A stretch of 20,000 nucleotides of DNA from an uncultured virus (IMG/VR IMGVR_UViG_3300008262_006132). Lineage: Duplodnaviria > Heunggongvirae > Uroviricota > Caudoviricetes. The translations under genes were made by a program, and so were the position numbers. The stretch lies in IMG/VR virus record IMGVR_UViG_3300008262_006132, positions 117,058 to 137,057 of that record; one strand, 5' to 3'. Position 1 is the first letter of the stretch. Each line of letters begins with the position of its first letter. Of the stretch, positions 2 to 16,744 are shown in pieces. Below the pieces are notes generated by a model, which was given only the letters and a program-made list of their open reading frames with translations, made no database searches and was not told the DNA's origin.

Positions 2-3000
2 GATAAGATTATTGCCAAGGGTAATTATACGAAATCTCCTGGTGTGAGATGGATTCTCGGAGTTGGATCCTCGATGGTTGGATTCGGACTTGCCGCGGTA
101 ACACTAGGTGGAATAATAGTCGGTACTTTAGGTTTAGGAGGATTGGCCATCAAAGCTGGACTTTCTGCAGTTGAATCAATTGCAAAAACTATAGTGAAGA
201 CTGACAAAATATTAAGTGCTGGTCAATATACAAAGTACCCAGGTGCTGCTTGGGCTTTAACAGTTGGTTCAATTATTACAGCGTTTTCTACAGCAGTATT
301 ATTATTGGGTGCTGTTAGTTCAGGAGGAGGTCTCTTGCAAAAGTTGAGTCTTGGATTAGTAAAAAACCCATTAGAGTCAGGAATACAAGCAATAAAGAAA
401 ATAGCTCAAGCTATAGTAGATGTAGATAAAAAGTTAGCTGAAGGTAGTTATACTAAAGGTCCGAATCCTACTTGGGCAAAAGGCATTTCCGCATCACTCT
501 CTGCATTTTCACCAATTTACAGAATGTTATTAGCTGAAAAACTTATGAGTTTCATAGGTGGTGTCTCCGCTAAAGACTTTGCGCAAGCTATAAAAGTAAT
601 TTCTGGTGGAATAGTAGATTCCGCAAAACTCTTTGAAAGCGCAAAAGTTGCCTTTAAAAATGGACCACCAGTTACTTGGTCAAAAGGTGTAAGTGCTTCA
701 CTCGGTGCGTTCTCATCAATATACTCACTACTCGTAAAAGATAAAATTATGAGTATTTTTGGATCAGGAATCTCACCGAAAGATTTTTCTCAAGCTATTA
801 AGACAATTTCTGGTGGAATAGTAGATGCCGCAAAATTATTTGGAAATGCTGCTGTAGCGTTTAAGAACGGGCCACCAGTTGAGTGGGCTAAGGGTATCAG
901 TAAAGCACTTGGTGCTTTTTCATCTATCTATTCACTTCTAGTTAAGGATAGAATAATGAGTATATTTGGTTCTGGTGTATCACCTAAAGACTTCTCGCAA
1001 GCGATTAAGACAATTTCTGGTGGTATAGTAGATTCTGCAAAGTTATTTGACAAGGCGTCTGTTGCATTCAAGAATGGTCCACCAGTTGAATGGGCAAATG
1101 GAGTTAGTAAATCTTTAGGAGCATTCTCATCTATATACAAATTACTAGCAAGTAATTCTGGTTGGTGGAAAAGTGGTGTCGATCCAAAAATGTATGCACA
1201 AGCTATAGTTACAATTACGAATGGAATTGTGACTGCGGCAAAGGCTTTCGGGTCGGCGTCAGTAGCATTTAAAAATGGTCCACCTGTTGAGTGGGCTGAT
1301 GGGGTTGGTAAGTCACTCTCAGCGTTTCAGCCTATTTATGAACTATTATTAAAAAATTCTGGTTGGTGGAAGAGTGGTATAGATCCTAAAATGTATTCTC
1401 AAGCAATTGTGACTATAACTAGTGGTATAGTCACTGCTGCAAAGGCATTTGGTTCCGCATCGGTGGCGTTTAAAAATGGTCCACCGGTTGAATGGGCCGA
1501 TGGAGTTGGTAAGTCACTAGCTGCCTTTCAACCTATATATGAGTTATTACTTAAAAATACTGGATGGTGGAAAAGTAATATAGATCCAAAGAAATATGCA
1601 CAAGCTATAGTCACTATAACTGGTGGTATAATCACCGCGGCTAAATCATTTAGTCAGGCTTCTGTTGCATTTAAAAATGGACCACCAGTCCAGTGGGCCG
1701 AAGGTGTTGGTAAGGCTCTTTCAGCATTTCAACCGGTATATGAATTACTGGTTAGAAATTCAAGTTGGTGGAAAAGTTCAATAGATCCTAAGAAATACGC
1801 TGAAGCGATAGTAACGATTACTGGTGGAATTGTAACTGCTGGTAAAGCATTCGGAGCAGCGGCTGTTGCATTTAAAAATGGTCCACCAGTTCAGTGGGCT
1901 GAAGGTGTCGGTAAAGCACTTTCAGCGTTTCAACCAGTCTATGAGATGTTGGTAAGAAATGCTAGTTGGTGGAAAAGTTCAATAGATCCTAAGAAATATT
2001 CAGAGGCTATACGAACGATTAGTAGAGGAATTACTGATGCCGCAATAGTGCTGTCTACCGCATCTGTTGCATATAAATTTTATCCAACAGAACAGTGGGC
2101 TTCTGGTGTAAGTAGAGCACTTACTGCATTTCAACCAATTTATAAGATTTTACAGAAAGATTCTGGATGGCTCAGAAGTGGTATTTCTCCAAAGATGTAT
2201 GCCGATGCTATAAAGACAATTACAACTGGTATTCGAGACTCAGCGATGATTTTAGCACAAGCTTCGATTGCCTATAGAATGTTTCCAACAGTACAGTGGG
2301 CAAACGGTGTAAGTAGAGCTCTTAGTGTGTTCCAACCAATTTATAAAATTTTAGAAAAAGATTCTGGATGGTTGAGGTCTAATATATCACCAGAAAAGTA
2401 CGCTAAAGCAATCAAAACAATAACTACTGGTATTCGAGACTCAGCGATGATCTTGGCTTCAGCTTCTATTGCTTATAGAATGTTCCCAACAGTTCAGTGG
2501 GCAAACGGTGTGAGTAGAGCTCTTAGTACTTTTCAACCAATATATAAGATTCTACAAAAAGATTCGGGTTGGTTCAGAAGTAACATATCTCCAGAGAAAT
2601 ATGCAACAGCTATAAAAACTATTACAACTGGAATAAGAGACTCGGCTGTGATTTTAGCCTCAGCTTCTCTTGCTTATAGAATGTTCCCAACAACACAGTG
2701 GGCAGACGGAGTTAGTAAGGCTTTAAGTACCTTTCATCCAATATACAAGATATTACAAAAAGATTCAGGTTGGTTTAGAAGTAATATATCACCTGATAAG
2801 TATGCCGCGGCTATTCGTACTATTAGTCAAGGTATAGTTGATTCTGCTTTAATATTAGCAAAAGCAAAGTCCGCTTATAAGTCTTTCCCAACCACAGAAT
2901 GGGCAGATGGTGTTAGTAGAGCACTTTCAGCTTTTCAACCTATTTATACGATACTACAAAAAGATTCAGGATGGTTTAAAAGTGGAGTTTCAGTTGGTAA

Positions 3001-5785
3001 GTATAGTGAAGCTATAAAAACACTTAGTATGGGAATCGTAGATTCTGCGAACATACTTAGTAAGGGTTTGTATAAAATTTATCCAACAGTAAACTGGGTT
3101 ATGGGAATATCAGGAGCTTTTGCAATGATACCAGCACTGATTAAGAAAGTAAACAACATTGATTTCAAGGGACTTTCTAAAATTTGGATGATAAGTGATA
3201 GTATTTACAAACTCTCGATTGCATTCAAGGACGCTAAGTTTACAAGTTTTCCGAGTAAAAAATGGACAAGTGCTATTTCATCATCTTTTACTATGATGAT
3301 TAATCTTCTAAAGAGTATTGATAAAAGTATATCTATCACTTCACTACTTAGTGGTATTTTGAAGTCTAAATCCTTAGTTAATTACATTCTAGATTTGGAT
3401 AAGAAATTTAGCCTCGGTAAATTTAACAAGTTTCCAAACTCAAATTGGGTTAAAGGGTCTACAAAGTCTATTAGTGAATTTGCGAAGTTACTCAGTGAAC
3501 TTAATAAGTTGGTCTCTTTAGTAGGATTAAAGACTGGTCAATTCAAAATTTCGAGTATTCTGAAGTCTGTTTTGGATGTTGATAATCAGATATCTAGAGG
3601 TAAATTTAACAGAGTAATAAGTCAGAAATGGTCAAGTTCATTGAGAGTTTCAATACTAGAATTTTCAAACTTGTTTAAAAATGTAGATAAATTGATATCA
3701 ATAATTGACTTAAAACTTGGTCAAACTAAAGTTACTAGTATCATTAAATCTATTCTACAAATCGACCTACAAATTTCTAAAGGCAAATTTAATAAATTTA
3801 TTGATAATAAGTGGATCAAAGGCACAAAATCTTCAATTATAGAGTTCGGTGGATTATTCAAAACTATAGACAAATTAGTTTCAATAATTTCCTTAAAAAT
3901 CGGCCAGACAAAGGTTACAAGTATCATCAAGTCAATACTTCAAATCGATTCACAAGTTTCAAAGGGTAAATTTAATAAATTTATTGATAATAAGTGGATT
4001 AAAGGCACAAAACAGTCTGTTCTAGAGTTCGGAAAATTGTTTATTGATGTTAATAAGAATTTCTCTGTGACTTCTTTATTACTTGGTTTTAATAAAGTCA
4101 AAATGATTTTTGATAATATTATATGGATTGATAATAAAATATCTAGAGCTAAATTTGAGAAATCACCACCAACAAAATGGCTTACAAATACTAGAGATTC
4201 AATAGTTTATTACGGTAAATTGGCGATTGATTCTAATAAAATGTTCGGCACAGTGCCTCTAATAGCAGGTATCAAAAAGATTAAAACACTAGTAGATACA
4301 ATTTTGTGGGTCGATAAGACTCTATCAAAGGGTAAATATAATAGAGTTCCAAGTTTAAAATGGCTAAACGAATCTAAAAATGCAATTTTTACATATGGTA
4401 AGATAGCAATCGATTCAAATAAGATCTTCCCTCTGATTTCACTTATAGCTGGTATTAAGAAGGTTAAAATGATATCAGAGGCTATACTATGGGTTGATAA
4501 AACACTATCTAAGGGAAGTTACACTAAAGTGCCAACGCAGAATTGGTTGACACGTTCAAAAAGCACGATTTTTCAATACGGGAATCTAGCTATAGAATCA
4601 AATAAAAGGTTTGGAACAATTGGATTATTCTTAGGTCTGAAAAAAGTTAGAAATATTGCAGACACTTTAAAATATGTTTCGCTTGTAATTAGCGGTGGTA
4701 ATTATACTAAGTTTCCAAGCTTAGAATGGTCCAAGTCAGTTCCTGCGGCAATATCTGGCTTTATGAATCTACCGTTTAAGGGAATGTTTGGTCAATTTTT
4801 TGAAAGTATTTTCGGGGCTTCAGAAGATAGTAAGAAATCACAATTAGGAAAAATTGTAGATTTGATGTTATATGTTGATAAGAGATTTCAATCGGGTAAC
4901 TGGAAAAAGTTCCCAACTGTTGAGTGGGTTAAAGGTACAATTTTAGCTCTTCAGAAATTTAAAGATATAGTTTCTTTACTTAGTTTTGGTTCACTAAATA
5001 CTAAGATAATGACTGCATTCGGTGGTAAGAATCCACTTGTAAGCGCAGTTTCTAACATTGAAAAACTGGCACAGTCTTTTGATAAACTAGGAAATTCTAT
5101 GAAGAATTTCAGTCAATCAATAAAAACTCTAGATACAGAAAAACTCGCAGCGATTAAGAGTCTTTCTTCAAATGTTATTTTAATGTCATTGATGAATCCA
5201 GAGCAATTTGACGCGATGTTATCTAAGTTAGAAGAAAGATCTGGAGTTTTTGCTGACCTTATGAAGGATGTGCAAGACAAGAAAGGTACTTCTGCTAAAA
5301 CTACTGGTGCCCCTGGTACAGGTCAGAAAGTTGCAGGTGGTGGCGCAATGACTGATTTCAAGATGGTACCATCATCTACGGGAGCTAGAATGTCTGGTAA
5401 ATCAGATGATGCTAAAATGCTTGAGAAACTCGATGCTATGACAAGTCTACTCGCTGATATATCTAGTGTTGTTGGTAGTAAAGGAGCTTTGAAAACATAC
5501 CTTGGAAGTCTTAAAGAAGATGTTGATATAGGTGATGGTGGGTTCTCACTTTTTAGTAGATCTGATAAAAGAACCAAAAACATATTGAAAAAAGTTGGTG
5601 TATCACCAGATGGTATAAATATCTACTTATTCTCATATAAGTTTGATCCTACAGTAGTTTACCAAGGTGTAATTGCACAAGAGTTGCTTGGCACGAGATT
5701 TGAAAACTCAGTTGTACTTGATAAGTCTGGGTATTACGCAGTTGACTACTCAAAACTAGATGTTCAGTTTAAAAGAACAAATTGA
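2..5785 (+). CDS. Giant helical-repeat virion protein, tape-measure-like, with C-terminal Peptidase S74-type intramolecular chaperone domain; 5'-truncated by the window
   Basis: The frame is open from position 2 (DKIIAKGNYTKSPG...), so the GTG at 44 is not the true start. It has Gly/Ala-rich hydrophobic segments, about 20 tandem 61-69 aa repeats with a [FY]xxxPxxxW signature, and a C-terminal SDKRTK...GVIAQE...VDYSKL motif. Tape-measure function is an inference. Confidence 0.6.
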   Translation, partial: DKIIAKGNYTKSPGVRWILGVGSSMVGFGLAAVTLGGIIVGTLGLGGLAIKAGLSAVESIAKTIVKTDKILSAGQYTKYPGAAWALTVGSIITAFSTAVLLLGAVSSGGGLLQKLSLGLVKNPLESGIQAIKKIAQAIVDVDKKLAEGSYTKGPNPTWAKGISASLSAFSPIYRMLLAEKLMSFIGGVSAKDFAQAIKVISGGIVDSAKLFESAKVAFKNGPPVTWSKGVSASLGAFSSIYSLLVKDKIMSIFGSGISPKDFSQAIKTISGGIVDAAKLFGNAAVAFKNGPPVEWAKGISKALGAFSSIYSLLVKDRIMSIFGSGVSPKDFSQAIKTISGGIVDSAKLFDKASVAFKNGPPVEWANGVSKSLGAFSSIYKLLASNSGWWKSGVDPKMYAQAIVTITNGIVTAAKAFGSASVAFKNGPPVEWADGVGKSLSAFQPIYELLLKNSGWWKSGIDPKMYSQAIVTITSGIVTAAKAFGSASVAFKNGPPVEWADGVGKSLAAFQPIYELLLKNTGWWKSNIDPKKYAQAIVTITGGIITAAKSFSQASVAFKNGPPVQWAEGVGKALSAFQPVYELLVRNSSWWKSSIDPKKYAEAIVTITGGIVTAGKAFGAAAVAFKNGPPVQWAEGVGKALSAFQPVYEMLVRNASWWKSSIDPKKYSEAIRTISRGITDAAIVLSTASVAYKFYPTEQWASGVSRALTAFQPIYKILQKDSGWLRSGISPKMYADAIKTITTGIRDSAMILAQASIAYRMFPTVQWANGVSRALSVFQPIYKILEKDSGWLRSNISPEKYAKAIKTITTGIRDSAMILASASIAYRMFPTVQWANGVSRALSTFQPIYKILQKDSGWFRSNISPEKYATAIKTITTGIRDSAVILASASLAYRMFPTTQWADGVSKALSTFHPIYKILQKDSGWFRSNISPDKYAAAIRTISQGIVDSALILAKAKSAYKSFPTTEWADGVSRALSAFQPIYTILQKDSGWFKSGVSVGKYSEAIKTLSMGIVDSANILSKGLYKIYPTVNWVMGISGAFAMIPALIKKVNNIDFKGLSKIWMISDSIYKLSIAFKDAKFTSFPSKKWTSAISSSFTMMINLLKSIDKSISITSLLSGILKSKSLVNYILDLDKKFSLGKFNKFPNSNWVKGSTKSISEFAKLLSELNKLVSLVGLKTGQFKISSILKSVLDVDNQISRGKFNRVISQKWSSSLRVSILEFSNLFKNVDKLISIIDLKLGQTKVTSIIKSILQIDLQISKGKFNKFIDNKWIKGTKSSIIEFGGLFKTIDKLVSIISLKIGQTKVTSIIKSILQIDSQVSKGKFNKFIDNKWIKGTKQSVLEFGKLFIDVNKNFSVTSLLLGFNKVKMIFDNIIWIDNKISRAKFEKSPPTKWLTNTRDSIVYYGKLAIDSNKMFGTVPLIAGIKKIKTLVDTILWVDKTLSKGKYNRVPSLKWLNESKNAIFTYGKIAIDSNKIFPLISLIAGIKKVKMISEAILWVDKTLSKGSYTKVPTQNWLTRSKSTIFQYGNLAIESNKRFGTIGLFLGLKKVRNIADTLKYVSLVISGGNYTKFPSLEWSKSVPAAISGFMNLPFKGMFGQFFESIFGASEDSKKSQLGKIVDLMLYVDKRFQSGNWKKFPTVEWVKGTILALQKFKDIVSLLSFGSLNTKIMTAFGGKNPLVSAVSNIEKLAQSFDKLGNSMKNFSQSIKTLDTEKLAAIKSLSSNVILMSLMNPEQFDAMLSKLEERSGVFADLMKDVQDKKGTSAKTTGAPGTGQKVAGGGAMTDFKMVPSSTGARMSGKSDDAKMLEKLDAMTSLLADISSVVGSKGALKTYLGSLKEDVDIGDGGFSLFSRSDKRTKNILKKVGVSPDGINIYLFSYKFDPTVVYQGVIAQELLGTRFENSVVLDKSGYYAVDYSKLDVQFKRTN
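662..3080 (+). repeat. Coding tandem repeat array A, 67-69 aa units (FKNGPPVEWA / YRMFPTVQWA ... GWWKS)
   Basis: Equivalent codons at 662, 869, 1076 (207-nt period), then 1277, 1478, 1679, 1880, 2081, 2282, 2483, 2684, 2885 (201-nt period), then 3080. Confidence 0.95.
3416..4930 (+). repeat. Coding tandem repeat array B, 61 aa units (SKGKFNK..P...W)
   Basis: Equivalent codons at 3416, 3599, 3782, 3965, 4148, 4331, 4514, 4697 (183-nt period), with a last longer unit at 4895. Confidence 0.9.
5561..5785 (+). other. Peptidase S74 / intramolecular chaperone autocleavage-like domain
   Basis: R|SDKRTKNILKKVG...IYLFSYK...QGVIAQEL...GYYAVDYSKL matches the SDxRxK, GxIAQE and VDY hallmarks of the endosialidase-chaperone family. 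Confidence 0.8.
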
Positions 5786-10579: not shown

Positions 10580-11062
10580 GTGAAAAACCTTTCGATTTTC
10601 GATTTTGATAATACTCTTTGTTTCACACCTGAATCAAAAGAAGGTATGGAAATTTATAAAAATAAGACCGGTCAAGAGTGGCCTTATCCAGGTTGGTGGG
10701 GTAGAAAAGAATCACTTGATACTGATATTTTTGATATTCCTCTTAATAAAGTTGTTTATGATAAATATCTATCTTCTAAAGGAGATTATTTAGTACTTGC
10801 AACTGGTAGACTCTCAAAATTAACAAGTGAAGTATCATCTATACTAGAAAAATATGAACTAAAATTTGATGAAGTTCATTTAAATCCAGGAATGGATACT
10901 TACAAGTTCAAAACGGATTTATTTGAAAAAGTAATTTACAAAATTAGACCAGATAAGGTGGTCATTTATGATGACCGAGATACTCACCTTATCCGATTCA
11001 AAGAGTGGTCTGAAAAGCAACCTTGTTCTATAGAAATCATAGATGTTAAAAAATTAAAATAA
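10580..11062 (+). CDS. HAD-superfamily phosphatase, Swiss Army Knife RNA-repair-like
   Basis: Motif I FDFDNTL followed by TP and GWW, motif II LATGR, motif III FK, motif IV IYDDR. GTG start. Confidence 0.8.
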   Translation: MKNLSIFDFDNTLCFTPESKEGMEIYKNKTGQEWPYPGWWGRKESLDTDIFDIPLNKVVYDKYLSSKGDYLVLATGRLSKLTSEVSSILEKYELKFDEVHLNPGMDTYKFKTDLFEKVIYKIRPDKVVIYDDRDTHLIRFKEWSEKQPCSIEIIDVKKLK

Positions 11063-12190: not shown

Positions 12191-12472
12191 ATGAGCACAA
12201 TTACTGAAAAGAAAACAAAATCCAAAGCTGATGAAATTCTTTCTAGACCGTGGAAATTGATACTTTCAAACGATGATTATAATACGTTTGATTGGGTAAT
12301 CACTTGTTTGATGAAAGTTTGTGGACACGAATATGAGCAAGCTTCTCAATGTGCGCACATCGTACACTTCAATGGAGAGTGTGATGTTAAATACGGAGAT
12401 CTCGAGACAATTTCTACAATGAAAGATAAATTAGTTAATGCTGGTTTGAAAGCCTTGATCGAGGCTAATTAG
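12191..12472 (+). CDS. clpS: ATP-dependent Clp protease adaptor ClpS
   Basis: LILSNDDYNTFDWVITCL...EQASQCAHIVHFNG..VKYG...L...GL matches the ClpS NDDxxT and VHxxG motifs, in the short Bacteroidetes-like form. Confidence 0.93.
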   Translation: MSTITEKKTKSKADEILSRPWKLILSNDDYNTFDWVITCLMKVCGHEYEQASQCAHIVHFNGECDVKYGDLETISTMKDKLVNAGLKALIEAN

Positions 12473-13269: not shown

Positions 13270-15489
13270 TTATTTTTTGAAAGGATTATCCCATTTTCCA
13301 AGAGAAATATCATTTTTATATCTATTATTAAATTTAGATTTTCTTCTTATATCTAAAAGCTGTTTATAGTCAACGCCTTCTATAAATTCATTGTTATTTA
13401 ATATTTGATCTATAAACAATCTTAGTTGACTATCACTAAGACTATCAATGTAATCTTCTATTATTTGTCTAAACTCATTTTTTTGAAAAATGGCACACAT
13501 GTCAATTATTGTCATAACAGTGTCATCATGAGATGATCCATCTGCCGCGTACTTCACATTACCAGCACTTGTTGTATGTTTGATGAAAGTAGTTATTTCT
13601 TGAATATTGATTTCATTTGTAATTATTATAGATTTGTCTTCCATTTTATCTTGATACTCTTTAACAAGTAAATTTTTATTTTCACCGACTTTTAATCCTA
13701 TTTTTTCTTCAATCGCATCAGCTCTATGTTTAAATCTGAAAAATATTGAAGAACCATAGTTATTTCGTCCATCAAATACATTTGGTAAATGAGCTAAGAG
13801 TTCATTTCCATAGGTATTGATTTCTAAAACTATTTTAACGTTTTCTGGATTGAAGTATTCAAATGCAATCAAATAAAGAAGTTCGGATAGCTGTTGAACG
13901 GAAATTAAATTACTTCTAAAAATTCCAATCTGTTCAAGTCTTCCGAAATCGACAATAGATTTGTATTTATGCTTTTGTTGTTCAATCAATTCACTTGGCT
14001 TTATACCAACTTTAAAAATATTCACTACTGTGCTGTCTTGACCTAGACCTTCTGCCACATCCACTGAAATAATAATTTTATAATTTTTTCTTTGGATTGG
14101 TATGTAAATATCTTCATCTTGACACCATTTTAAATCTTGATAAGAAAATTTCAACTTTCCTTCAAACTCATCAATATTTTCCCACTCATAAAGTTTTTTA
14201 CCTCTTGTCATCTCATCAATCAAGGTCTCACTTAATAAGCTTCTTGATGAGTTTATGAACCTAAGATCATATTCTTGATTAAAAGCTTCTTCACCACCTA
14301 TATCTTTAATAGTTTCCTTTTTCCAAGTTGTGATGTCTGAAAATTCGAGTAGCCTAATTTCGTTAAATGATTCCGCAAGTAAGTCTTCCTCTGAACAATC
14401 ACTGTTGTTCAAGGTCGTTATTACCCATTTTTTTAATTCATCATTATATTTTAAACTATGTTCGTTCTTTGGGTATTGTTGTTTTAAGTAATTTAGTAAC
14501 TCCTCTTTATCAATATCTAATTCTTTAACTTTCTTGGGATTAAGTCTTATATAAGTAGAAAATCTTTTTGGCACTTGCCACCAATAAACCCTTTTAGCCA
14601 TATATGATGATTTTTCCCCTTCTGGCTTTTCGGCCTCGGTTAATAATTTGTGAAATAGATTAAAACCATTAGGAGTAGATGTTATAATAATTTTAGAATT
14701 TTCTATGTTTGACACAGTTGGAAAAACAGATTTATAAAACTTATCAGCTATATTATCTGGTAAGTAAGCAAACTCATCTAGATATAAAAAGTCAGCAGTT
14801 TGACCAATAGAGGATGTTTTTGTAGTCGCGAAGCCTTTGATCCTACTTTTATTTTCAAAAACCATAAATTTTTGATTCCAGTTAATTATTCCTTGTTGTA
14901 AGAAAAAGGGTAGTCTTTGATAAATTTCTCTTATTTTATCCAAAACTTCAACAGCTGTATCCAATTTATTAGCAGTCACAAGAACATTCTTGTTATTATT
15001 AAAAAGAACATAATGTAGCATCATTATTGAAGAACAAATCGTATTATGAGATAGAATTCCGTTTGTATAAAGTCTGTGATTACGATGATCAACAGTTGCA
15101 TCAAACATAGATGTTTTGAATTTTATCTTTTGCACACTTATTACCTTTTCTTCTCCAGTTTGAGTTTGTAGAATATCACCAACTTTTAGCTCTTTTACGA
15201 ATATTTCCTTGAAATTACTACCAAAAACTATATGATTGTCTGCACTCTCTAAATGAAAATTACTCGTTTTAACTACCCAATGAGTGTATGGTTGTGTGAG
15301 ATGTATTTTTGATACGGGTTCGTATCCAGTATCACTTAAAACCTTCAAGTTACTTGTGTTTAGAGAATTAATAATCTTTTTTGATATATCATCCTCATTT
15401 AGACTTGTACCTCTATACTCAATTTTTTCTATAAATTGAATCAATGAATAAAGTAATTTGATTGTTACTGATTTAAAAAATTTAAACAT
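13270..15489 (-). CDS. terL: Large terminase C-terminal fragment fused to split intein IntC (aa 1-149 intein; aa 150-739 rest of ATPase plus nuclease)
   Basis: T4 gp17-like motifs after HN|T: Walker B FLYLDEFA, coupling motif ITSTPNG, FNQEY, nuclease acidic motifs VDVAEGLGQD, LEINTYG, HDDTVM. Confidence 0.95.
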   Translation of the reverse strand: MFKFFKSVTIKLLYSLIQFIEKIEYRGTSLNEDDISKKIINSLNTSNLKVLSDTGYEPVSKIHLTQPYTHWVVKTSNFHLESADNHIVFGSNFKEIFVKELKVGDILQTQTGEEKVISVQKIKFKTSMFDATVDHRNHRLYTNGILSHNTICSSIMMLHYVLFNNNKNVLVTANKLDTAVEVLDKIREIYQRLPFFLQQGIINWNQKFMVFENKSRIKGFATTKTSSIGQTADFLYLDEFAYLPDNIADKFYKSVFPTVSNIENSKIIITSTPNGFNLFHKLLTEAEKPEGEKSSYMAKRVYWWQVPKRFSTYIRLNPKKVKELDIDKEELLNYLKQQYPKNEHSLKYNDELKKWVITTLNNSDCSEEDLLAESFNEIRLLEFSDITTWKKETIKDIGGEEAFNQEYDLRFINSSRSLLSETLIDEMTRGKKLYEWENIDEFEGKLKFSYQDLKWCQDEDIYIPIQRKNYKIIISVDVAEGLGQDSTVVNIFKVGIKPSELIEQQKHKYKSIVDFGRLEQIGIFRSNLISVQQLSELLYLIAFEYFNPENVKIVLEINTYGNELLAHLPNVFDGRNNYGSSIFFRFKHRADAIEEKIGLKVGENKNLLVKEYQDKMEDKSIIITNEINIQEITTFIKHTTSAGNVKYAADGSSHDDTVMTIIDMCAIFQKNEFRQIIEDYIDSLSDSQLRLFIDQILNNNEFIEGVDYKQLLDIRRKSKFNNRYKNDISLGKWDNPFKK
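15043..15489 (-). mobile_element. Split intein C-fragment (IntC, 149 aa)
   Basis: Block B-like LESADNHIVF, LKVGD motif, block F MFDATVD, block G LYTNGILSHN followed by Thr(+1). No N-terminal Cys/Ser block A and no endonuclease domain. Confidence 0.93.
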
Positions 15490-15566
15490 GATTTTTTTTA
15501 TATTTTTTCATTATTATCTCAAATAAATCATTTATCTTCCTATCAAGTTGGGAAACGTTTTAAATA

Positions 15567-16067
15567 TTATTTATCGAGAAGGTATATAAGGTCGTAAATT
15601 TTTATTTTTATTTTTTCTAAAATTGTTAATTTTCTTTGTCTCGATAATATATAGTAATATAATTTTCCAAATCTTATCTCTAATAACTCATCATTTAATC
15701 CAACAAAAACCTTCGTATTAAAGGAAAAACACTTACCAATCTGACGACTTGCCATAAGTATATTAAATCTATTATTAAAGAAGTTATCTAGTATTTCTTT
15801 TTGATAATCTCTTAGAGGTATTATAATTGGTTGACCTTCTTCTCCTTTGATGTAACAATATGTTGACGCGAAGTAGTGAATGTCGAGTGCACACCTAATA
15901 TACTCTTCTTGCTCTTCAGGTGACATTTTGAAAACAAGTCCTGATGTTCTAAGACCCACTACCTTTTCAAAAAATGGATTTTCTAATCTACTGAGTACAA
16001 ATCCATTATTTATTCGCTCAGTAGCATCTTCAATCATTTTTGAATCCCAAATAATTTGCCTAGACAT
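15567..16067 (-). CDS. terL: Large terminase N-terminal fragment fused to split intein IntN (aa 1-112 extein; aa 113-166 intein)
   Basis: Adenine-binding motif LRDYQKE and Walker A start MASRQIGK, followed immediately by CFSFNTKV (intein block A) in place of the expected Thr. Confidence 0.95.
   Translation of the reverse strand: MSRQIIWDSKMIEDATERINNGFVLSRLENPFFEKVVGLRTSGLVFKMSPEEQEEYIRCALDIHYFASTYCYIKGEEGQPIIIPLRDYQKEILDNFFNNRFNILMASRQIGKCFSFNTKVFVGLNDELLEIRFGKLYYYILSRQRKLTILEKIKIKIYDLIYLLDK
15570..15731 (-). mobile_element. Split intein N-fragment (IntN, 54 aa)
   Basis: Cys1 codon at 15729-15731. CFSFNTKVFV...EIRFGKLY is typical of block A and the following strand-helix. Confidence 0.9.
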
Positions 16068-16112
16068 AAAATTTTAAAAATTTTGAAAAAAATCCACAAA
16101 GGATTATTTTAT

Positions 16113-16122
16113 GTATATATAC
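16113..16122. promoter_or_regulatory. Palindromic GTATATATAC, candidate bidirectional late promoter
   Basis: Perfect 10-bp palindrome in the 62-bp gap between divergent terL-N and the putative terS. Its ATATATA core recurs upstream of many genes in the window. Confidence 0.5.
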
Positions 16123-16129
16123 TAATACT

Positions 16130-16744
16130 ATGGGTACTATGTCTAAATCAGAAAAAGAGCATAATCGTATTAACGATGAGTTTGATATGATACAAGAAGA
16201 GAATAGAGATTTTGATATTTCTAGTCACTTGGCCAAAGTTGACGACTTACCAGATTTAGGTCAAATCGAATTATATGACTATGACTCAGATCTTACAGTC
16301 GTTGCTCAAAAAGGATTAGAAGTGATTGAATCACTTGTAGATTTATACCTTAGTGAGTTTGGTGATTTAAAAAACCATCCATATATCAGAAATAAAGTAA
16401 AAGAAGATGCGATGGTTTACGCTGAGACATTATTTTTATCTAAAATGACTAGAAAAAACTTTTTAACGCAGTTAAGACAGATTGATAATGGTGACAATTC
16501 TGCTAGAATGCATGAAGTAATAAACCAAACGATCAGAGAAGTTCGAGAGAATTCTAAATTTTCATCTTCTCAAAGGACCGAGTTAGAGCAATATTACAAG
16601 ACATTTAGAGAGGATTTAAGTGAAGTCGCTTCTACTATGAAGAAAGATGGTGGTTCTAATTCTGGTGGAGACGATGGAACAATAGTTGATAGTAAGAAAT
16701 TAAATGACTTAATTTCCGAGGCTATGAAGAAGAAAAAGAGTTAA
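16130..16744 (+). CDS. terS: Probable small terminase subunit (T4 gp16-like)
   Basis: Adjacent to terL and predicted helical. DDLPDLGQIELY, DNSARMHEVINQ and TIVDSKKLNDLI resemble, in the same order, gp16 segments as I recall them (SDLPGI..., DSPRHMEVF, TVFMGSPTELMD). Confidence 0.6.
   Translation: MGTMSKSEKEHNRINDEFDMIQEENRDFDISSHLAKVDDLPDLGQIELYDYDSDLTVVAQKGLEVIESLVDLYLSEFGDLKNHPYIRNKVKEDAMVYAETLFLSKMTRKNFLTQLRQIDNGDNSARMHEVINQTIREVRENSKFSSSQRTELEQYYKTFREDLSEVASTMKKDGGSNSGGDDGTIVDSKKLNDLISEAMKKKKS

Follow-up and report, generated by a model that had tools for sequence, protein, structure and literature searches.

A large terminase gene broken at its Walker A motif and carrying an atypically split, helix-bearing intein in an uncultured virus

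How can a virus obtain a working large terminase subunit (TerL) when its terL gene is broken between two adjacent residues of the Walker A motif? The question is raised by a 20,000-nucleotide (nt) stretch of an uncultured virus of the Caudoviricetes (positions 117,058 to 137,057 of IMG/VR record IMGVR_UViG_3300008262_006132; hereafter the window), in which TerL is encoded by two genes, each fused to one half of an intein. An initial annotation, made from the sequence without database searches, had read this locus as an atypically split intein that rejoins the terminase. The best explanation, and one that we consider very probably correct, is that the two terL products are rejoined by protein trans-splicing, on which DNA packaging probably depends. 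The window is part of a virus record of 137,057 bases judged 44% complete; sequence identical to the locus is present in contigs of 172,576 and 291,299 bases, so the source is probably a jumbo phage, and the sequencing datasets containing the window sequence are for the most part aquatic, with no RNA dataset among those listed.

Anatomy of the split terL locus

Gene 1 (15567..16067, on the minus strand, like every feature of the locus given below) encodes 166 amino acids (aa) and matches the PHROG terminase large subunit (E 2.3e-15). It consists of a 112-aa TerL N-extein (15732..16067), which ends in SRQIGK with the Walker A lysine (K166 of T4 gp17), and a 54-aa N-terminal intein half, IntN (15570..15731), which starts with Cys1 (codon 15731-15729) and comprises two strands and helix alpha1 (approximately residues 1-30), followed by an extra amphipathic helix (approximately residues 35-54; 15570..15629). 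After a 77-nt spacer (15490..15566), gene 2 (13270..15489; 739 aa; PF03237, E 4.9e-11) encodes the C-terminal intein half, IntC, fused to the TerL C-extein. IntC (149 aa, 15043..15489) is cysteine-free and ends in SHN; its Hint core begins at about residue 41 and is preceded by a head helix (approximately residues 5-25; 15415..15477), on which the IntN tail helix is predicted to pack. The C-extein (590 aa, 13273..15042) begins with Thr+1, the Walker A threonine (codon 15042-15040; T167 of T4 gp17), and contains the remaining ATPase domain, with Walker B (14767-14781) and motif III (14665-14685), and the nuclease domain, with its acidic motifs at 14047-14061 and 13516-13530. The coordinates, lengths and motifs given initially for the two genes and the spacer were all confirmed.

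Because the spacer is 77 nt long, the two genes lie in different frames. The initial annotation placed stops in all three frames of the spacer, which holds when each frame is read across the junction region; strictly within the 77 nt, however, one frame contains a single stop, after which 23 codons stay open until a TAA that overlaps the IntC start. Without the intein halves the exteins sum to 702 aa, the length of an intein-free relative (L009; 92.9% identical to the N-extein and 84.7% to the C-extein), and in intein-free alleles they abut exactly. Comparison of L009 with T4 gp17 (E 1.1e-41, with the nuclease part weak) mapped the break to K166/T167 of Walker A. The PF03237 match and the location of Walker A, Walker B, motif III and both nuclease acidic motifs identify the protein as a gp17-type large terminase, as had been predicted from excision of the intein. 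Among the 32 loci found by a search with gene 1, the residue following RQxGK is Cys in 13 and Thr in 19. In the closest intein-free terL (L007:4001-6000), the reading frame halts after 275 aa and resumes in another frame, which reflects either an assembly error or a true frameshift.

Splicing residues, fold and selection

Relatives were collected with three queries: gene 1 (32 loci), IntC (5 loci) and an IntC alignment, of whose 328 viral and 426 metagenomic matches the best 80 each were taken; since the pool was drawn from the best matches, the family counts below describe a biased sample. It contained 112 distinct inteins, 69 of which are split, helix-bearing (IntN at least 44 aa) and located at the TerL Walker A motif. 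Ten residues are invariant among these 69 (C1, T65, A83, D84, H86, M128, D130, S147, H148 and N149), including the class 1 intein residues C1, H86, D130, H148 and N149, each present in 100%. The +1 residue is Thr in 66, as in the window, and Ser in the other 3. Within the window IntC, block B reads Ala83-Asp84-Asn85-His86 (15232..15243), with Ala where most inteins have Thr or Ser, block F is represented by Asp130 (15100..15102), and block G by His148-Asn149 with Thr+1 (15040..15048). The break falls after helix alpha1 and leaves blocks B, F and G to IntC, as in S2-type atypical splits.

IntC residues 41-148 match CatC (6dsl_B, E 5.5e-8) and VidaL (6vgv, E 7.7e-5). A natural contiguous relative, L105, scores above the TIGR01443 cut-off (19.1 versus 15.6 bits) and models as a Hint fold with a predicted local distance difference test (pLDDT) score of 91.9; it superimposes on VidaL with Z 20.2 and a root-mean-square deviation of 2.0 over 134 aligned residues, and its top 33 structure matches are all Hint domains. 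For the window pair itself, a Hint fold is predicted solely through modelling of the IntC+IntN complex, described below. Both intein halves are under purifying selection: nonsynonymous and synonymous divergence (dN/dS) between the window and its sister locus L004 is 0.236/1.05 for IntN and 0.215/1.45 for IntC, and dN stays below dS wherever changes exist in the 7 pairs compared.

An extra helix on each intein half

The most distinctive trait of the split terL intein, overlooked in the initial annotation, is the helix on each half. Natural atypical splits have an IntN of 15-37 aa and lie at S1 or S2 (PMC13014065, PMC10189870, PMC11766414), whereas the IntN is 54 aa in the window and 44-81 aa among the 69 relatives. 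The two helices, IntN 35-54 and IntC 5-25, are amphipathic and conserved, with Lys42 of the IntN tail helix present in 99% and Glu21 of the IntC head helix in 97% of the 69, and dN/dS against L004 (0.31/1.21 and 0.23/0.91 for the two segments, respectively) shows purifying selection on them. Prediction of the IntC+IntN complex gave a score of 0.91, compared with 0.01 for the best of 3 controls, with 100% contact agreement, a partner pLDDT of 92 and 107 contacts. The mark for this score applies only roughly here; among solved complexes 116 of 157 attained it, against 2 of 215 mismatched pairs. Since two parts of a single domain are apt to pass through likeness to solved inteins, a pass indicates likeness more than binding. 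In the model, IntC 13-20 contacts IntN 42-49 in antiparallel orientation, and these helix contacts are the part of the predicted complex for which no solved precedent was found. K42 and E21 adjoin in the predicted interface and could form a salt bridge.

Contiguous relatives carry the helix pair as a hairpin, which the L105 model places after helix alpha1 as additional helices at 37-49 and 54-68. A comparison of the two helices as a possible duplication gave hhalign probabilities of 33% (local) and 0.8% (global). No solved structure matching the pair appeared among the Foldseek and other structure matches, a search in which the helices were not queried alone. Likewise, no description of a helix-bearing split TerL family was found in the literature searched, which left out most subscription papers and some supplements; within that literature, we found neither the helix on each half, nor Thr+1, nor any relative in which 12-67 kb separates the halves or the two lie on opposite strands.

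Arrangement of relatives and probable loss of the endonuclease

Between the halves of the 69 split helix-bearing inteins, a long same-strand open reading frame (ORF) is present in 50 and a gap of less than 300 nt in 12; the other 7 have antisense ORFs (5) or broken nucleases (2). The rest of the 112 comprise 2 split helix-free inteins, 6 contiguous mini-inteins with both helices (194-201 aa), 2 long contiguous inteins, 10 in other ATPases, 1 at a second site and 22 of which only IntC is visible. A Vsr-like motif, detected with our own pattern, occurs in 46 of 52 intervening ORFs; 3 of the 5 ORFs scanned match DUF559, 2 of them above its cut-off; and in 38 of 44 distinct cases the nuclease ORF overlaps the start of IntC. 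The intein tree, from a quick search covering neither the 22 inteins with only IntC visible nor the one at the second site of L188, placed the window as sister to L004 (Shimodaira-Hasegawa-like approximate likelihood-ratio test, 98), which bears a nuclease (DUF559, E 4e-6; Vsr TIGR00632, E 0.0047, below cut-off). On this tree the 12 short-gap inteins require 12 changes, at least 6 of them forced, indicating that nuclease loss is recurrent; the 6 contiguous inteins require 4 changes, at least 3 forced. One relative, L065, retains an obvious nuclease 3' remnant between its halves.

The 5' part of the window spacer (15531..15564) matches the IntN tail and endonuclease leader of nuclease-bearing relatives, with a best score of 37 that was reached by 0 of 300 shuffles. 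Resemblance of the 3' half to a nuclease C-terminus was suggestive by eye and was rejected, since 102 of 300 shuffles did as well against L004 alone; the overlapping stop that they share carries no weight, since IntC codons supply it. The initial annotation correctly found no endonuclease gene in the spacer but missed what this signifies: its absence is probably a derived loss within a family of fractured genes described in 2009, and the match of the leader points to the spacer as the probable scar of that loss.

Several relatives show other arrangements. Five loci (L053, L056, L063, L068 and L164; gaps 1,751-1,898 nt) have a different nuclease-like ORF of 550-590 aa in antisense between the halves, and the near-identical inteins of L053 and L055 occur with and without it. 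In L192 (1834-4677, nested ORF 2171-3010) and L179 (approximately 2041-3375, nested from 2120), a contiguous TerL frame stays open across an out-of-frame, same-strand, Vsr-like nested ORF of approximately 280-300 aa in the intein S2 loop; this dual coding looks like a stage just before fracturing, and related architectures have been described (bioRxiv 2025.01.02.630785). In L188 (1367-5249), TerL comes in three pieces, separated by two split inteins, one with Ser+1 at Walker A and one at a downstream Cys+1 site; a separate ORF intervenes in each. Related helix-free inteins occupy the Walker A motif of other ATPases (L180, L189, L191, L193-L196; L176, L184, L190); they are atypically split, one being contiguous, and their hosts are gp46/SbcC-like or helicase-like by motif only. 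A second, contiguous intein (Cys+1) lies within the TerL nuclease domain of L079, L134 and L143. The IntC of LR756500.1 (L205, from 2456) ends in Ser-Gln instead of His-Asn.

Alternative explanations

The alternative that survives best, although we regard it as very unlikely, is that a tiny intron or ribosomal bypassing joins the frames before or during translation, yielding one precursor with a cis-splicing intein. In its favour, the six contiguous relatives exist, RNA splicing restores other phage terL genes (PMC12880540, PMC10055350), and bypassing was named as an alternative by Dassa 2009 (PMC2677866). However, no Rfam family was found in 14500-16500, where the only match (E 0.58) was a chance one, predicted folding of the spacer is no stronger than that of shuffled sequence (z 0.58), and IntC is preceded by an A-rich leader resembling those of other window genes. 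Moreover, spacers among relatives range from -1 to 1,898 nt, and in three relatives the halves are uncoupled: separated by 12,371 bp with 14 ORFs between them in LR756501.1, approximately 67 kb apart in reversed order in G003, and approximately 22 kb apart on opposite strands in G002. All three have an IntN of 51-55 aa with the helix, and only a protein-level join explains halves that are so far apart or on opposite strands. A third match in LR756501.1 was rejected as a 394-aa paralogue lacking the Walker A lysine. It is mainly the uncoupled relatives, together with the invariant catalytic residues, that disfavour this and the other alternatives.

That the halves dock through the intein and its helices, and work without covalent splicing or with the intein merely as a cleaving scaffold, seems extremely unlikely. 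The large predicted interface would suit docking, and intein-free fractured enzymes exist (Dassa 2009, PMC2677866), but here the break runs between a Lys and a Thr that are neighbours in the P-loop, and every splicing residue is invariant in the 69 relatives.

An intact terL elsewhere, with the locus described here a dead remnant or an artefact of assembly, we find scarcely credible. Such a reading could draw on the incompleteness of the record and on the nature of the support, which comes from contigs rather than raw reads; yet a contig of run X5 spans 14857-16141 at depth 28 with 0 differences and 0 gaps, and one of run X15 spans 15294-15741 with 3 substitutions and 0 gaps, which substantiates the spacer at the level of contigs. 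Runs X13 and X17 have holes at the spacer and no single piece across it, no indel at the locus was listed in the 4 runs compared, and intein-free alleles of relatives are also present in two of these runs. The identical 77-nt gap recurs in relatives L002, L003 and L119, and both halves are under purifying selection. A single TerL locus is present in the 44%-complete record, in which neither a second terL nor a related nuclease was found, and in genome G001; no second terL was found in G001 or in G003, which is 89% complete. Recoding of a stop codon was ruled out, as the genes lie in different frames.

Several observations weigh against trans-splicing or against parts of the account given here. 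The window halves fall below the cut-offs of curated intein hidden Markov models (HMMs; PF14890, 15.4 versus 35.8 bits; TIGR01443, 13.8 versus 15.6), and block B departs from TxxH, with Ala83 rather than Thr or Ser in all 69 relatives. The complex score may partly echo the solved Cat and VidaL structures, although those lack the helices. The record and G001 (60% complete) leave room for an intact terL elsewhere, the dispersed halves come from metagenomic assemblies, and in one dispersed case, LR756501.1, IntC (L202:2504-4771) ends in Leu-Asn rather than His-Asn. The spacer 3' half shows no significant match to nuclease 3' ends (262 of 300 DNA and 197 of 2000 peptide shuffles did as well), and no cultured phage with the split helix-bearing form was found among the records examined.

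Comparison with known systems

Dassa 2009 (PMC2677866) described fractured genes in which an N-part with IntN is followed by IntC with a C-part, with nuclease loss as step III and uncoupling as step IV of their evolution. In the window, too, the two parts are adjacent, on the same strand and in the original order, and an intein half is fused to each. The free-standing GIY-YIG or Vsr-like endonuclease between the halves is missing from it, as from the endonuclease-less gp41-7 of that paper. Fractured genes also have a leader hairpin with a late-promoter element; in the window a leader remnant is recognized by sequence, and the spacer fold is no better than that of shuffled sequence. The same paper reports a gp17-like 'Terminase' locus with an unusual split, whose record is of IntC only (122 aa, ending HN-Ser, without a head helix), whereas the window has both halves complete and helix-bearing, Thr+1 and no nuclease. 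This IntC shares LSDQVERKF and CADTHIVFD with the Walker A intein of L192 (by eye, unscored), a resemblance suggesting that it probably sits at the Walker A site. P-loops are common intein sites (PMC4760082), and the novelty first attached to the P-loop site was overrated, given this Ser+1 IntC and the contiguous inteins annotated there in cultured phages.

Those contiguous inteins are the TerL mini-inteins of Ackermannviridae (Klebsiella phage Magnus, MN045230.1; Ag3, Maynard and Marshall), annotated as inteins in GenBank. They share the Walker A junction and Cys1/Thr+1 with the window and are approximately 35% identical to its IntC, but consist of a single stretch of 159 aa, whose S2 loop is short and non-helical, and splice in cis.

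AceL-TerL, GOS-TerL and Cat (6dsl), which we take to be inserted downstream in TerL, share the TerL host with the window, and the window IntC is homologous to CatC. The presumed site fits the second Cys+1 split site of L188 and of Vibrio phage EniLVp02; in the window it is empty, with Leu there. These inteins are split after helix alpha1 (S2), as in the window (PMC13014065), but have Cys+1 (PMC11766414; 6dsl_B) and an IntN of 25-37 aa without the helix pair. The window intein probably works like AceL and Cat and is not their allele, in line with the initial proposal of an atypical split at the Walker A Lys-Thr junction with Thr+1, distinct from their Cys+1 site. Cultured EniLVp02 (PP209424.1; L204:1381-3667) has a TerL divided at the downstream Cys+1 site by an atypically split intein, with overlapping genes and the second half annotated as hypothetical; this phage lends itself to in vivo tests of trans-splicing. 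VidaL (6vgv/6vgw), whose host protein is presumably not TerL, was the best Foldseek match (E 1.2e-9); it is a natural atypical split and has Ala at the block B Thr position, so Ala83 does not disqualify the window intein from class 1. VidaL differs in being split at S1, with a 16-aa IntN (PMC13014065) and no helix pair. Campylobacter phage CP21 (L206:1491-3936) has a contiguous intein a few residues before the Walker A lysine, and its terL ends with a second IntN followed by a nuclease-like ORF.

Neighbouring genes

Divergent from gene 1 lies a 204-aa ORF (16130-16744, plus strand), with sub-threshold Pfam matches only and no PHROG match, which from its position and helical look is possibly the small terminase. 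Also on the plus strand and near terL are a ClpS adaptor (12191-12472; PF02617, E 1.4e-17) and a HAD-family protein (10580-11062; PF10307, E 1.3e-8). Positions 2-5785 (plus strand) encode a protein of more than 1,900 aa with many repeats of 50-60 aa, whose C-terminus matches phrog_6121, a virion structural protein.

Discussion

We infer that TerL would be expressed as two separately translated precursors, whose IntN and IntC would bind and fold into one Hint domain, assisted by the antiparallel amphipathic helices at the S2 split point. Following established class 1 intein chemistry, a thioester at Cys1 would be transferred to Thr+1, Asn149 would cyclise with the aid of His148, and an O-N shift would complete the joining of Lys112 to Thr+1, rebuilding the Walker A loop of the 702-aa gp17-type terminase. 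Historically, a free-standing gene for a Vsr-like homing endonuclease would have inserted into the S2 loop of a Walker A mini-intein; the window lineage would later have lost this gene, leaving 77 nt.

More tentatively, and with the odds somewhat against it, the helix pair may be a dedicated trans-docking zipper that is required for efficient capture and that permitted nuclease loss and the drift of the genes to 12-67 kb apart or onto opposite strands; the family would then span all stages between contiguous and fully uncoupled forms and hold many split inteins with Thr+1, their specificity being determined by helix pairs that can be swapped.

The fractured-gene layout has been known since 2009, and the Walker A intein site was probably encountered then too; the helix on each half is among the traits that we did not find in print. 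As the candidate orthogonal ligation tool that the initial annotation saw in it, the intein would offer a single cysteine overall (Cys1), a cysteine-free IntC, a Thr scar and dozens of family variants, with an IntN of 54 aa that is less convenient for synthesis than the known ones of 15-37 aa. The helix pair, which would be a structural addition at the S2 split not found in solved atypical inteins, allows a direct test of what drives fragment capture. Because standard HMM cut-offs miss both halves, terminases of such large phages are annotated as truncated. For the origin and uncoupling of split inteins, for which the 2009 model came from fragments, the family provides a densely sampled natural series.

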